In this document: positions 3,149 to 50,693 of the stretch, piece after piece | Layout of the letters: every line of letters starts with the position of its first letter | How positions within the stretch are numbered: position 1 is the stretch's first letter | IMG/VR virus record: IMGVR_UViG_2724679122_000005 | Direction: 5' to 3' (one strand) | Length of the DNA: 64,000 nt | Source of the DNA: an uncultured virus (IMG/VR IMGVR_UViG_2724679122_000005) | Taxonomy: Duplodnaviria; Heunggongvirae; Uroviricota; Caudoviricetes | Translations under genes and position numbers: made by a program | The notes under the pieces: model-generated | Told to the model about the DNA's origin: nothing | Databases searched by the model: none | What the model saw: the letters and a program-made list of their open reading frames with translations, nothing else

Positions 3149-3383
3149 GCCTTTAAATGATTTTCAAATTCTTTATAAAGTTGGGTAGCTGCTTTATTCA
3201 TTTTTCCGTCATACATGATGTGTACGTTTCTAGGAAAAAGTTTGCTGACTGTGGCGCAATAAAACTCCATACGCCCACATGGTCTAACAATTCCGCGATA
3301 CCCAATCTTTGTAAGCCACAATAAAAAACGCCTTAAAAAAGAACCTCCCTAGAGAGGTCGGCGTAATTAACGCCGTCCGTCAT
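3145..3383 (-). CDS. Phage protein, homolog of 7949-8200 (frameshifted in homopolymer)
   Basis: C-terminus NKAATQLYKEF versus NKPAQQLYKEF. Confidence 0.55.
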
Positions 3384-3784
3384 TTTTAAAACCTTCCGTA
3401 AGTGTTTTAGAGATGGCTGCATTCGCAGGAGCTAAATGATTTGTGTTGATTTCTTGCGTCTCTGGGACGACCTCTAGGTGTGTAATATTATTTTTCAGCT
3501 CATCAAGTTGGTATTGACCACCAGTTAATTGAGCAAGTTCACCGTTGTGATAATCCTGAGACAGATCTGCATGTGTTTTGGCAATATCAATCAAGCGAAA
3601 AGTTTTATCAAAAGCAAACTTACTTAAGTTATGGTCCTTAAGTTTTTCAACAAGACTTAGCTCAATTGCAGAGAGTAGGGCGTTTTATATCGCCCATATC
3701 ATTTTTCGCTTCGCTACGCGCCGCAATAAGGTCATCCACAGTCACGCTTTTGTTTTCTGGAAAAAGTTGTGAACTAGTACGCAT
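3367..3784 (-). CDS. Phage hypothetical protein (frameshift near 3685)
   Basis: ATG at 3784 (MRTSSQLFPEN) joins ORF 3367-3594 after a shift. Confidence 0.55.
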
Positions 3785-38151: not shown

Positions 38152-39258
38152 ATGGCTTCAAAAGAAGATAAATCATTGATTGAAGTACTTACCCAACATC
38201 AGGCGTACTTATATCGGGTGTCTTCTCAATCTGTTAATGAGCTACTAAAAATCTTTAATGATGAGTCAATATTAATGTTGGCAAAGCTTCGGGATTTGCT
38301 TGATGAATTAAATGATTCTGAAAAGATGGCTCTAGCAAGTGGACAGTACACTACAACTAATCTTAAAGAAATTCGTGATCTGATTGCTCAGTGGTTTATA
38401 GGACTAAATACTGCATTACCTGAAGCTTTCGCAGTTTCTGCTACTGCCTTGGCAGTATATGAAGCCAATTATACGGCGAAGCTATATGGCGGCAAGATCA
38501 AAAAGCCAAATGGTGAAAAGCTTTATGCAGCAGCTAAAAAAGTACCGTTGGTGGGAGGAGCACTGGTTGATGAGCTGCTTTCTAAGATTGCTGAAACTGC
38601 ACGCCAAAAAGTTGAGTATGCCATTCGGGATGGTATCAACTCAGGTAAAACAAATCAGGAAATAGTTCAGCGCATTCGCGGCACCAAGCGGCTTAATTAT
38701 GAGGATGGGCTTCTAAGTAGCAGTAAGACTGATATCGACCGTACGGTGAGAACAGTTCGTAGTCATGTAGCCAATCAAGCTTATCTCAATAGCTTTAACC
38801 AGATTGGCTTTGAATACGTAAGACTGGTAGCAACTTTAGACGGAAGAACTTCAAAACTTTGCGCAACTCTTGATGGTTCCGTATGGGAGATTAACGATCC
38901 GGCAAAGCGCGTACCGCCGTTGCATCCTAATTGCCGAAGTATTCTGGTACCTGTAGAGAAAGACGGGAAATTAGTTGGTGAACGGCCATTTGTTATGGAC
39001 GAACGTCGAGTTAAAGACATCCCGAAAGAAGAGCGTAGCCAGTTAATAGGGCAGCTAGATGCCAATACTACGTTTAGAGAGTTCTTCAAGAAGACAGATG
39101 ATTTCTTTCAAAGAGAATGGTTGGGGCCGAAACGTTACAAGCTCTATAAGGAAGGAAAATTTGATTTTGATAAGTTCTTCGATCCAGAGGGGCGGTTATA
39201 TACATTGGACCAACTTCGAAAGTTGGATGAGCAAACCTTTAAGGAGTTGGGCTTATGA
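38152..39258 (+). CDS. Minor head protein (SPP1 gp7/Mu F-like)
   Basis: ATLDGRTSKLC..PPLHPNCRS. Confidence 0.9.
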   Translation: MASKEDKSLIEVLTQHQAYLYRVSSQSVNELLKIFNDESILMLAKLRDLLDELNDSEKMALASGQYTTTNLKEIRDLIAQWFIGLNTALPEAFAVSATALAVYEANYTAKLYGGKIKKPNGEKLYAAAKKVPLVGGALVDELLSKIAETARQKVEYAIRDGINSGKTNQEIVQRIRGTKRLNYEDGLLSSSKTDIDRTVRTVRSHVANQAYLNSFNQIGFEYVRLVATLDGRTSKLCATLDGSVWEINDPAKRVPPLHPNCRSILVPVEKDGKLVGERPFVMDERRVKDIPKEERSQLIGQLDANTTFREFFKKTDDFFQREWLGPKRYKLYKEGKFDFDKFFDPEGRLYTLDQLRKLDEQTFKELGL

Positions 39259-39485
39259 GTGAGTCAAGACATTTAGTGCTAAAGCGTCACCCTACTTTGA
39301 AAGGTTATCTGGTTATTTGTGATGAAGAAACTGGACAACCACTAGCTGGACAAAGAGCAGTACAGATGAATTCTGATGCCTTAAATGGACCTGCAACAAT
39401 TACTGTAACTTTTGAAGCATATGGTGCTCATGGTGTTCGCTTACTGACTGATGAACCAAGGCCGACTCAAACAAAGCAAATGTAG
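39255..39485 (+). CDS. Phage hypothetical protein
   Basis: ATGA-coupled 76-aa ORF. Confidence 0.65.
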   Translation: MSESRHLVLKRHPTLKGYLVICDEETGQPLAGQRAVQMNSDALNGPATITVTFEAYGAHGVRLLTDEPRPTQTKQM

Positions 39486-39500
39486 CGAAAGGTACTACAA

Positions 39501-39653
39501 ATGTCTGAAAAGCAAATCAATATGTCGGATGCTCAATATATTCTGAGCACAAAATTAATTCTGGTGCCATTTCTTCAAATTAAGATTTCAAGAGCCATGG
39601 CAATTTATGGTTTTACTTTTGAAAGATTAAAAGCGATTGCACTCATCAATTAG
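39501..39653 (+). CDS. 50-aa hypothetical protein
   Basis: Translated by hand; AAGG upstream. Confidence 0.4.
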   Translation: MSEKQINMSDAQYILSTKLILVPFLQIKISRAMAIYGFTFERLKAIALIN

Positions 39654-39859
39654 AACTTAATTTTTAACCTTAGCACCTTCGGGTGCTTTTTTTGTGAGAA
39701 GAAAANNNNNNNNNNNNNNNNNNNNNNNNNNNNNNNNNNNNNNNNNNNNNNNNNNNNNNNNNNNNNNNNNNNNNNNNNNNNNNNNNNNNNNNNNNNNNNN
39801 NNNNNCACCATTTTTTTTTTAACCTTAGCACCTTCGGGTGCTTTTTTTGTGAGAAGAAA

Positions 39860-40174
39860 ATGATCAAAGAAGTAACAGAGCAAGAGTTAGCTGAAAAGTC
39901 TGTGGCACCCCGAGTAACTAAAGCGCAAATTGATTCATTGATGGAGCGTGTTACATATACGGTTGAGCAACGCCCCGGTGGCACGACATCTACTTTTGTC
40001 CATGCATTTTTAGATGGAAAGTTTTTCCTAGCAACGGGTTTTAGTGCATGTGTGAATGCTGAAAACTTTGATGCTGAAATTGGTGAGCGTATGGCTCGTG
40101 GAAATGCAGAAAAGTCAGCTGAAAATAAACTTTGGGAGCTAGAAGGCTACCGTTTATTTGCAACAAATTACTAA
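39860..40174 (+). CDS. N4 Gp49/Sf6 Gp66-family protein (candidate nucleotide sponge)
   Basis: APRVT, GFSACVNAENFDAEIG, KLWELEGYRL motifs. Confidence 0.75.
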   Translation: MIKEVTEQELAEKSVAPRVTKAQIDSLMERVTYTVEQRPGGTTSTFVHAFLDGKFFLATGFSACVNAENFDAEIGERMARGNAEKSAENKLWELEGYRLFATNY

Positions 40175-40260
40175 GTTTTCAATCGAAATTTAGCGTCCTT
40201 AGGGGCGCTTTTTTAATGCCTTGAGATAAGTCTTTACCCAATCAAACGAGAGGTTTGAAC

Positions 40261-48367: not shown

Positions 48368-48635
48368 TCAACTTATTCAGTAACAAAGCCTATGGAAACC
48401 CATGGGCTTTTTTATTTCTAAAAATTAGAGGTTGTTATGGCTTTAAAAGTCGGAATTATTAAAAGCTCAGACGTATCAAAANNNNNNNNNNNNNNNNNNN
48501 NNNNNNNNNNNNNNNNNNNNNNNNNNNNNNNNNNNNNNNNNNNNNNNNNNNNNNNNNNNNNNNNNNNNNNNNNNNNNNNNNTTGAAGTTAATTTTTAACC
48601 ATAGCACCTTCGGGTGCTTTTTTTGTGAGAAGAAA

Positions 48636-48827
48636 ATGCCAAGCCCTATTATCCAATATTTCCAATATGAACATTTACCTGAACATTTGCAGCAAGTTAG
48701 TAAGCCAATTGGTGATTTAGCTCGGCAAATGGATGAGCAACTTCCTGACGGGCCTGAAAAATCCACTGGATTAAGAAAGCTACTTGAAGCAAAAGATGCA
48801 TTTGTACGCCAAGCTTTAAGTAAATAA
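48636..48827 (+). CDS. 63-aa helical-hairpin protein (candidate Acb2/Tad1-like sponge)
   Basis: YFQYEHLP..LP.GPEKSTGLRKLLEAKDAFVR; same leader as 39860. Confidence 0.7.
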   Translation: MPSPIIQYFQYEHLPEHLQQVSKPIGDLARQMDEQLPDGPEKSTGLRKLLEAKDAFVRQALSK

Positions 48828-48941
48828 TCATTTATAGAAATGAAGCGTCCTAAAGGGCGCTTTTTTTATTGCCTGCCGAAAGCGGATGCTAACGGCGAAT
48901 CCGGGCGGATGCCCATTTTGTATATATAGGTTGGATGACCA

Positions 48942-49709
48942 ATGAAACTTAAAACAGTAACAATCGACGGTAAAGTTTATGCGGAAGTAGACGGTGATAA
49001 GCCGATCTATATTCATGATGACGGCAAAGAAATGCCACATGATGCACCACACTCGGTAGCAACAATTGCACGCTTAAACAATGAAGCTAAAACACATCGT
49101 GAAGCCAAAGAAGCAGCTGAAAAAGCATTAAAAGCTTTTGAAGGAATCGAAGACCCTGCGGCAGCTAAAAAGGCATTACAAACAATCCAAAATCTCGACG
49201 ATAAAAAGCTGGTGGATGCTGGTGAAGTTGAGAAAGTGAAAGCTGAAGCTATCAAGGCAGTTGAAGAAAAATATGCTCCGATTGTTGAGCAACGTGACGC
49301 ACTAGAAGCCTCTTTACACAAAGAACTAATCGGCGGTGGTTTTGCTCGTTCTAAGTACATTCAAGACAACATTGCAGTACCTGTGGACATGGTTCAGGCA
49401 ACCTTTGGCCATCACTTCAAAATCGAAGAAGGCAAGGTGGTTGCATACGATCCGAACGGCGAAAAGATTTATTCACGTGTCCGCCCGGGTGAACTTGCAA
49501 ATGTTGATGAAGCTTTAGAGTCCTTGGTTGGTGGATACCAGCATAAAGACTTAATTCTTAAAGGTGGTAAAGGAACTGGTGGCGGTTTCCAAAGCGGGGG
49601 CAAAGGTGGAGCGCCTGCAGGAATGAAACGCAGTGAAATGTCTGTTTCTCAGAAAGCTGACTACATCAAAGAACATGGCAATGATGCCTTCCTAAAACTG
49701 CCGAACTAA
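48942..49709 (+). CDS. Capsid scaffolding protein, type 2
   Basis: Coiled-coil, Gly-rich linker, upstream of capsid gene. Confidence 0.8.
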   Translation: MKLKTVTIDGKVYAEVDGDKPIYIHDDGKEMPHDAPHSVATIARLNNEAKTHREAKEAAEKALKAFEGIEDPAAAKKALQTIQNLDDKKLVDAGEVEKVKAEAIKAVEEKYAPIVEQRDALEASLHKELIGGGFARSKYIQDNIAVPVDMVQATFGHHFKIEEGKVVAYDPNGEKIYSRVRPGELANVDEALESLVGGYQHKDLILKGGKGTGGGFQSGGKGGAPAGMKRSEMSVSQKADYIKEHGNDAFLKLPN

Positions 49710-49736: not shown

Positions 49737-50693
49737 ATGACTACAACAGTTAATTCAGACATGATCATCTACAATCAATTGGCTCAAACTGCTTATTTAG
49801 AGCGTTTGCAAGATAATTTGAATGTATTTAACCAAGCCTCTAATGGTGCAATTGTTTATCGCAATGAGATCATTGAAGGTGATTTCAATAAAGAAGCATT
49901 CTACAAAGTGGGCGGTAGCATCAAACATCGTGATGTGAATTCAACCGCCAAAGTAGTTCCAGAGAAAATTGGTTCTGGTGAATCTGTAGGTGTAAAAGTG
50001 CCATATAAATATGGTCCTTATGCTTCTACTGAAGAGGCATTCAAACGCCGTGCACGTACACCTGAAGAGTTTGCCATGATTCTTGGTTATGATTTAGCAG
50101 ATGCATTGGTTGCTGGTCGTTTACAGTACAGTTTAGCCTCCTTAAAAGCAGCTATTTCTAGCAACCCGGATATGGTTGCCAAAGGCAGTATTGCTGTAGA
50201 TGGGCGTAAAGCATTAACACGTGGTATGCGTAAGTTTGGCGATAAGTTTGGACGTATTAGTTTATGGGTAATGAACTCAGATACTTATTTCGATATTGTC
50301 GATGATGCAATCACTAATCAAATTTATGGCGAATCTGAAATCGTTATCTATGGTGGTTTACCGGGTACCTTAGGTAAGCCGGTATTGGTTACAGATGCCG
50401 TAGGTGATGATGATGCATTTGGTTTGCAAATGGGTGCAGTTACTGTTACAGAATCACAAGTACCAGGCTTCCGCGCGTATGACATCAATGATGAAGAAAA
50501 CTTGGCAATCGGTATGCGTGCTGAGGGTACATTTAACCTAGATATTCTTGGTTATAGCTGGGATACATCAAAAGGTGAAAACCCTGACCTTACTTTACTT
50601 GGTTCAAGTGCCAACTGGAAAAAACATGCTACTAGCAACAAAATGACAGCAGGCACATTGCTTGATCTATCTGGCACAACAACAACTGGTTAA
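49737..50693 (+). CDS. Major capsid protein, type 2
   Basis: QTAYLERLQDNLNVFNQASNGAI; GYSWD..NW. Confidence 0.85.
   Translation: MTTTVNSDMIIYNQLAQTAYLERLQDNLNVFNQASNGAIVYRNEIIEGDFNKEAFYKVGGSIKHRDVNSTAKVVPEKIGSGESVGVKVPYKYGPYASTEEAFKRRARTPEEFAMILGYDLADALVAGRLQYSLASLKAAISSNPDMVAKGSIAVDGRKALTRGMRKFGDKFGRISLWVMNSDTYFDIVDDAITNQIYGESEIVIYGGLPGTLGKPVLVTDAVGDDDAFGLQMGAVTVTESQVPGFRAYDINDEENLAIGMRAEGTFNLDILGYSWDTSKGENPDLTLLGSSANWKKHATSNKMTAGTLLDLSGTTTTG

Follow-up and report, generated by a model that had tools for sequence, protein, structure and literature searches.

A 63-residue helical-hairpin protein in an accessory cassette of Acinetobacter prophages is a candidate Acb2-like sponge

The gene described here, P0001, encodes a protein of 63 amino acids and lies in a stretch of 64,000 nucleotides from an uncultured virus (IMG/VR record IMGVR_UViG_2724679122_000005), which is referred to below as the window. 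This gene forms an accessory ("moron") cassette carried by a temperate Acinetobacter siphophage, and we put at about even the chance that its product is a hairpin sponge like Acb2 whose signal lies outside the panel assayed by Tal et al. 2025. Four independent lines tie the protein family to sponges, namely remote homology, the domains fused to its members, the genes beside them and an exact exchange of its cassette for one carrying Acb4. The family is known but unnamed and uncharacterised, and it is conserved to a degree unusual for so small a protein. It is among the largest uncharacterised families of small phage proteins and has members in well-known phage groups. Sponges are a main route by which phages pass signalling immunity, such as CBASS (antiphage signalling based on cyclic oligonucleotides), Thoeris and Pycsar (antiphage resistance by means of a pyrimidine cyclase), and each new sponge has revealed signals that matter. 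Because the links to sponges are joined here by the apparent exclusion of five standard signals, the question of what P0001 binds becomes directly testable.

As a sponge, P0001 would act through protomers of two long antiparallel helices that would assemble into an even-numbered homo-oligomer. Pockets between the protomers would be lined by the near-invariant N-terminal residues F9, Y11 and H13, and also by a charged motif of the second helix (E41, R47, K48, E51, K53, D54 and R58). Such pockets could sequester a nucleotide-derived immune signal, with the consequence that the host effector would never be switched on.

The gene and its cassette slot

The 63-residue sequence quoted in a first-pass annotation of this region is the exact translation of positions 48636-48827 on the plus strand. 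The same annotation had remarked that the open reading frame track mis-starts the gene at the edge of a gap, and this was correct: the mechanical list gives 81 amino acids from a TTG at 48582, the first base past the gap of 100 N at 48482-48581. That start is an artefact, because the 18 extra codons cross the terminator-like hairpin at 48603-48618 and its T-run, because the homologues begin with MPSPI or MPxPI, because annotated phages call the 63-residue form and because the unrelated Acb4 cassette has an identical leader and ATG. The features of the cassette, with the gene that replaces P0001 in a second prophage of the window, are as follows.

48603..48625, plus strand: upstream terminator-like hairpin AGCACC-TTCG-GGTGCT (48603-48618) and its T-run, the 5' boundary of the cassette
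48626..48635, plus strand: purine-rich leader of 10 nucleotides, TGAGAAGAAA, which separates the T-run from the ATG and recurs identically in the Acb4 cassette
48636..48827, plus strand: P0001 gene of 63 amino acids (PHROG 1761/5120 family), with ATG at 48636 and stop at 48827
48842..48870, plus strand: downstream terminator-like hairpin GAAGCGTCCT-AAAG-GGCGCTTT (48842-48863) and its T-run, the 3' boundary of the cassette
39860..40174, plus strand: occupant of the slot in the second prophage, a 104-amino-acid protein of the Acb4 family (PF13876)

The interval 48598-48870 that the first-pass annotation had singled out is therefore the whole cassette, since hairpin, leader, reading frame and second hairpin all fall inside it.

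The 63-residue reading frame is a real gene. Its 59 copies in the fetched IMG/VR loci comprise four DNA alleles with nine variable codons, and the wholly synonymous nature of this codon variation (9/9) shows selection on the gene. In 37 phage records the protein recurs at 100% identity, and 48 Acinetobacter phage records, most of them Vieuvirus-type siphophages of A. baumannii, match the DNA at 92-99.9% identity. Contigs assembled from RNA sequencing in four runs of four studies span the reading frame, reach the expected upstream flank of the slot and bridge the gap, but they are no proof of transcription because DNA can be carried over into such libraries.

In the second prophage of the window the gene order is identical, and the 104-residue gene stands in the slot of the P0001 gene. 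Its product matches PF13876 with 58.9 bits (cut-off 27; E 7.3e-16). This is the Acb4 family of anti-CBASS sponges, whose founding member, a protein of phage SPO1, is described as a tetramer binding 3'3'-cyclic GMP-AMP (3'3'-cGAMP) (Chang et al.; Tal et al.). A phmmer search found no solved structure for this occupant. Both cassettes open with the hairpin AGCACCTTCGGGTGCT, a T-run, the leader GTGAGAAGAAA and the ATG, and in their alignment columns 21-57 are identical through the ATG. The upstream hairpin recurs unchanged before the Acb4 cassette (39827-39842), and the 3' hairpin of that cassette (40192-40209) is GC-rich and similar to the one at 48842-48863. Given this identical upstream boundary and similar 3' hairpin, the two genes, though unrelated, are cargo that can be exchanged at a single cassette site.

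The 76-residue protein encoded upstream of the slot served as anchor for a wider survey, which yielded 80 IMG/VR loci, and the 76 that reach the scaffold gene were counted. An Acb4-like gene fills the slot in 48/76 (44 with scaffold type A, 4 with type B) and the P0001 gene in 12/76 (5 and 7, respectively). The remaining 16/76 are empty, all of them with scaffold type A, and keep one hairpin, the upstream one. Each gene is found with both scaffold types, so the flanking module does not determine which gene occupies the slot. The earlier proposal that two unrelated sponge-like occupants alternate in the same slot is thus borne out, both by this split together with the common hairpin, leader and ATG and by the membership of the first occupant in a verified sponge family. 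The cassette behaves as morons and anti-defence cassettes do, being a hairpin-bounded insert that is present, absent or replaced in otherwise collinear phages. Carried by a temperate Acinetobacter phage, it may affect which strains permit the growth of that phage.

Two further observations were made on the slot. A reading frame of 50 amino acids (71 in some loci) lies 5' of the cassette, after the 76-residue gene and before the upstream hairpin (3247-3399 in locus L022; about 39500-39650 in the window). Every one of the 48 Acb4 loci and of the 16 empty ones has it intact, and of the 12 loci with the P0001 gene 8 lack it or have it broken, with a stop or frameshift in L059 and L036; it may be a gene or a regulatory region. 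In addition, the Acb4-like occupant is called with 84 and not 104 amino acids in 9 of the 48 loci (L050, L053, L055, L060, L068, L083, L086, L088 and L093), which can indicate a shorter allele or a later start.

The host element is an Acinetobacter Vieuvirus-type prophage, that is, a temperate siphophage. Ten contigs with nine gaps of 100 N (6242-63009) make up the window, a scaffold with a G+C content of 38.5% that carries the structural modules of at least two related prophages of this type. The P0001 gene lies at the beginning of the contig just after the gap 48482-48581. This gap and the one at 39706-39805 are probably repeat-induced, since both lie in the upstream flank that the two copies of the slot share. 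Adjacent contigs need not be neighbours in the phage, because the contig before 48482 ends after the tail-tube gene. In complete relatives the order is small and large terminase subunit, portal, head-morphogenesis protein, 76-residue gene, P0001 gene, scaffold-like protein and major capsid protein. The flanking genes in the window are these.

39255..39485, plus strand: 76-amino-acid gene, the upstream flank of the slot and anchor of the locus collection, after the head-morphogenesis gene (38152-39258)
48942..49709, plus strand: scaffold-like protein (DUF6651, PHROG 784/206), the downstream flank of the slot
49737-50693: major capsid gene, after the scaffold-like gene

One GenBank record names the head-morphogenesis gene "NAD+-asparagine ADP-ribosyltransferase" (vB_AbaS_Gln, locus L001, 3372-4475; the counterpart in the window is 38152-39258).

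Family, distant homology, fold and fusion partners

P0001 matches PHROG 1761 (E 8.1e-38, profile positions 78-140 of 148) and PHROG 5120 (E 1.2e-26, positions 13-71 of 79), neither of which has an annotated function. No Pfam family was matched, and the P0001 family is without a Pfam model. The label "occludin homology domain protein" in some GenBank records was traced to Occludin_ELL (E 0.11) and was rejected as a chance coiled-coil match. The homologues comprise 4,521 representatives of clusters at 50% identity (E<=0.001), or 3,369 clusters at 90% identity in a search restricted to near-length proteins, and all their source names read "hypothetical protein". By tblastn the family is present in 370 of 50,697 phage records, with the highest counts in phages of Vibrio (99), Mycobacterium (53), Erwinia (48), Acinetobacter (45), Brevibacterium (32) and Gordonia (30), and members are also found in jumbo, T4-like and N4-like phages. 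Identity to P0001 is 79% in Erwinia phage Yoloswag, 75% in Rhodobacter phage RcZahn and 55-68% in actinobacteriophages. The near-invariant residues are F9, H13, L14, P15, L18, S22, A29, L36, P37, E41, G45, R47, K48, L49, L50, E51, A52, K53, D54, V57 and R58. In the literature search no paper naming or characterising the family came to light.

The first-pass annotation had likened the sequence pattern of P0001 to the Acb2/Tad1 hairpin proteins (PF24729). The likeness stands as a distant homology, which probably accounts for the shared motif, and falls short of membership by the Pfam cut-off. The PF24729 proteins that were fetched are of two types, the PaMx33-like Acb2 proteins (with Y11 and K26) and proteins of 70 amino acids with the motif FTYHxP. 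A BLASTP comparison of P0001 with one of the latter gave E 5e-5 over 25 residues, and hhalign aligned the 116-member family profile with a profile of 64 FTYHxP-type proteins, all of them annotated PF24729, at 92.9% probability (E 3.6e-7, 53 columns). In this alignment F9 and Y11 fall on the F and Y of the FTYH motif, P37 on the proline of the loop, E41 on an invariant Asp, and R47-K48-L49 together with E51 on an invariant R-K-L-x-E. Moreover, 12 of the 116 family members have sub-threshold matches to PF24729 itself, the best with E 0.0037. The FTYHxP proteins are included among the 9,141 "Acb2 homologues" that Hadary et al. 2025 describe as gathered by HHpred. Members of that collection are given there as functional: Table S2 lists Acb2_4 (67 amino acids) and Acb2_44 (70 amino acids) as validated by plaque assay against CBASS of E. 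albertii and of Yersinia, respectively, and Acb2_11 (80 amino acids, with FQYLRP and DGADKTYTLRKLRE motifs) is reported as validated against type I Thoeris and CBASS (Hadary et al. 2025). PF24729 genes were also sought in 201 genomes of the family of the host bacterium, of which 18 were positive, with 0/30 in its genus.

The AlphaFold2 monomer of P0001, computed with a 116-sequence alignment, reached a predicted local distance difference test score (pLDDT) of 96.6 and a predicted template-modelling score (pTM) of 0.81, with helices at residues 4-9, 16-35 and 40-60. It has the form of a hairpin, a short N-terminal helix being followed by two long antiparallel ones. Among the fold matches in BFVD the first six are of the family itself, and 14 of the top 50 are named Acb2/Tad1 hairpin domain-containing, the best of them at rank 7 (E 0.05, TMq 0.71). 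In the ESM Atlas, searched by features, 22 of the 30 nearest clusters have some PF24729 members (18% in an example cluster). Tandem-duplicate forms are also found, seven among the best 150 representatives, and one of them was modelled by AlphaFold2 as a single compact unit (pLDDT 87.1, pTM 0.81); these forms fit a predicted even-numbered oligomer. The family profile also resembles PDB 8jaj chain a (T4 Gp22; E 0.009 over 44 residues), the sole PDB match below 0.01. The likeness lies in a stretch Y-x-H-F-Q-H-V-P ... LARQM and is probably due to chance.

Relatives of P0001 are fused to three sponge families, Tad1, Tad2 and Sequestin. This is of interest because Sequestin itself is reported to have been found through fusions, sponges often being fused together (Tal et al. 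2025). The counts below come from 120 listed of 245 longer homologues.

Sequestin (PF21825), as C-terminal domain: 4 proteins
Tad2-like (PF11195): 2 proteins
Clp_N (PF02861): 12 proteins (P0195, P0205, P0209, P0211, P0212, P0214, P0216, P0220, P0223, P0225, P0231, P0233)
WDGH domain (PF25311): 4 proteins (P0177, P0178, P0188, P0197)
ClpP-type protease (PF00574): 1 protein
Com zinc ribbon (PF10122): 1 protein

About 22 further Sequestin fusions are present in Table S1 of Tal et al. 2025, and the Tad1 fusion is a Tad1 homologue with the family domain at its C-terminus, the sole occurrence of the family in Table S1 of Hadary et al. P0144 has the family domain at its N-terminus and PF21825 at residues 74-132. 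As the two stand side by side in one chain, the family domain and Sequestin are partners and not one family. In the Clp_N fusions this domain is N-terminal and the family domain C-terminal, with an acidic repeat linker, an arrangement that could hint at Clp adaptors. By the fusion logic that led to Sequestin, the WDGH domain may be a further anti-defence candidate; no literature on it was found.

The neighbourhood outside Acinetobacter points in the same direction as the sponge fusions. Across 33 non-Acinetobacter loci the usual place of the gene is after the lysis cassette and ahead of the terminase genes, which is a classic moron site, and a Tad2-like gene lies at most three reading frames away in five of them (L170, L172, L173, L176 and L181).

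Candidate ligands and competing explanations

Specialists have already flagged the P0001 family as sponge-shaped. Tal et al. 2025 chose 124 short phage proteins that were predicted homo-oligomers with positive inter-protomer pockets, and eight of these candidates bear the signature of the P0001 family (rows 33, 35, 37, 39, 50, 94, 116 and 124 of the "Screen" table). Their predicted oligomer is given there as "hexamer" for seven and "dimer/hexamer" for one. A search with four short motifs among the proteins collected here recovered none identical to the eight screened candidates. The systems described for the screen are Thoeris I, Thoeris II, cGAMP-CBASS and two Pycsar systems, with no trinucleotide system among them. 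Since the screen of the eight relatives was negative, the five most common signals seem to be excluded, and the ligand is probably not 3'-cyclic ADP-ribose (3'cADPR), histidine-ADP-ribose (His-ADPR), 3'3'-cGAMP, cyclic CMP (cCMP) or cyclic UMP (cUMP). These negatives leave room for a different ligand, a rider that the first-pass annotation had itself attached. Cyclic trinucleotides would be the first candidates because CBASS of A. baumannii uses 2'3'3'-cyclic tri-adenylate (2'3'3'-cAAA), which according to a review signals to Cap4 (AbCap4). Acb2 is moreover described as having a separate site for cyclic trinucleotides.

Several results weigh against an Acb2-like sponge. The eight screened relatives gave 0 culture collapses in 37 successful transformations of 40 (Table S2 of Tal et al. 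2025). This figure should be read with the conditions of the screen as published, in which expression was heterologous and candidates were tested in pairs, no protein-level check being found in the part of the paper available. P0001 itself has no PF24729 match at E<=1, and the gathering cut-off of 27 bits is not reached. The family is also absent from the 9,141 Acb2 homologues in Table S1 of Hadary et al., none of which carries LLEAKD or RKLLE. An hhalign comparison with 11 PaMx33-like Acb2 proteins gave no match, but this test is powerless, because the positive control, a profile of bona fide FTYHxP proteins of PF24729, fails as well. Neither sequence nor fold searches recovered a solved Acb2/Tad1 chain, and the fold is too simple to tell. 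Foldseek against the PDB gave a best E of 1.8, and VIA-align retrieved only generic helical hairpins, both on the 92 chains from Foldseek and on 48,161 PDB representatives (best Z 7.2, a designed mini-binder). Sequence searches of the PDB with P0001, the family profile and the FTYHxP profile returned chance coiled-coil matches only. The conservation, at 55-80% identity over phages of both Actinobacteria and Proteobacteria, is unusual for sponges, proteins described as diverging fast, and the listed fusion partners include non-sponge domains as well (Clp_N 12, WDGH 4, ClpP 1, zinc ribbon 1). Finally, no convincing promoter of its own was seen between hairpin and ATG, the gene beginning 10 nucleotides past the hairpin within the block of head genes. 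Transcription must pass the hairpin in any case, since scaffold and capsid genes lie downstream, and this caveat applies equally to the Acb4 occupant.

A competing explanation is an anti-defence or host-takeover protein that binds a conserved protein, be it a sensor or effector of defence or a machine of the host such as Clp, and not a small molecule. Very high conservation from phylum to phylum points to a target whose surface is invariant, the Clp_N and ClpP fusions offer a possible partner, and the screen of five signalling systems was negative. There is also precedent among the Tad3-Tad8 inhibitors of Thoeris, several of which, according to a review, bind ThsB or ThsA and not the signal. 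Nevertheless both homology and fold favour hairpin sponges of the Acb2-like kind, the ClpP fusion may merely reflect the adjoining head protease gene, and the fusions to Tad1, Tad2 and Sequestin along with the alternation with Acb4 fit a sponge better. We regard a protein target as unlikely, though as deserving serious consideration.

The slot held in common with Acb4, and the Tad2 neighbours and sponge fusions elsewhere, also speak against a protein that binds a non-immune nucleotide or metabolite (for example a housekeeping second messenger) or that serves as a phage regulator unrelated to defence. This explanation is doubtful, yet it would account for the negative screen and for locus L121, in which the gene stands among those for ribonucleotide reductase, ThyX and DUF3310. 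Moreover, positive pockets can serve non-immune nucleotides, and most of the candidates in the screen were stated not to be expected to be true sponges (Tal et al. 2025). A role in head assembly is essentially excluded by the empty (16/76) or swapped (48/76, with the unrelated Acb4 gene) states of the slot, and also by the place of the gene after the lysis cassette in most enterobacterial loci and its occurrence in jumbo, T4-like and N4-like phages, in spite of its position between head-morphogenesis and scaffold genes in the window and vB_AbaS_Gln and after the portal gene at three other loci (L144, L171 and L178).

Returning to the Acb2-like sponge, its ligand could even be an immune signal beyond current panels, whether a cyclic trinucleotide, a longer cyclic oligoadenylate or an undescribed signal, but an orphan sponge of this kind seems rather improbable to us. 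If it were so, the near-invariance across phages of Proteobacteria and Actinobacteria would imply a ligand used in the defence of many phyla, P0001 could be employed as bait to capture and identify that ligand, and the cassette slot could be a place in which to seek further anti-defence genes.

Comparison with known sponges

Other identities were considered and set aside. TadIV-1 (T4 Vs.3), Lockin (a beta-rich hexamer) and Tad3 differ in fold or have no sequence match in the PDB. In a preprint on D29 gp53-gp52, PF24729 genes figure only as inserts between those two genes and not as binders of RNA polymerase.

The closest resemblance is to the short FTYHxP homologues of Acb2. Both groups are phage morons of 60-80 amino acids with an N-terminal aromatic-x-Tyr-(x)-His-x-Pro, two long antiparallel helices and a loop P-x-G/S-x-E/D-K/Q-S/T followed by A/G-L-R-K-L-x-E, and relatives of P0001 are predicted hexamers. 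They differ in the tail of the second helix, which reads LLEAKDxxVRA in the P0001 family and ExVMxANAAIA in the FTYHxP proteins, and the P0001 family is far more conserved and stays below the Pfam cut-off. In addition, the tested relatives of P0001 inhibit neither cGAMP-CBASS nor Thoeris I and II, whereas Acb2_4, Acb2_44 and Acb2_11 inhibit at least one of these.

With canonical Acb2 (PaMx33 and PaP2; acb2 of T4) P0001 shares a central pair of long antiparallel helices and a Tyr at position 11, which is conserved in its family. In the PaMx33 protein, described as a hexamer with two such helices per protomer, Y11 stacks on the adenine of 3'3'-cGAMP (Hadary et al. 2025). The hexamer of Acb2 thus finds a likeness in the hexamers predicted for relatives of P0001. 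Canonical Acb2 is longer (about 74-94 amino acids against 63), and no sequence or profile match joins the two, the profile comparison being one where the control failed as well.

Sequestin (PF21825; T4 Y16O) is likewise an all-helical phage protein of 60-80 amino acids that exists stand-alone or fused to sponges. It is a dimer or tetramer that binds 3'cADPR, and P0001 has no PF21825 match at E<=1. Acb4 (PF13876; Bacillus phage SPO1) shares with P0001 the cassette slot, leader and ATG in sister prophages. It is described as a tetramer with a beta-sandwich core and helices, a fold unrelated to that of P0001, and has no sequence similarity to it. Taken together, P0001 represents a branch distinct from the known Acb2/Tad1-hairpin sponges in motif, in conservation and, apparently, in specificity.

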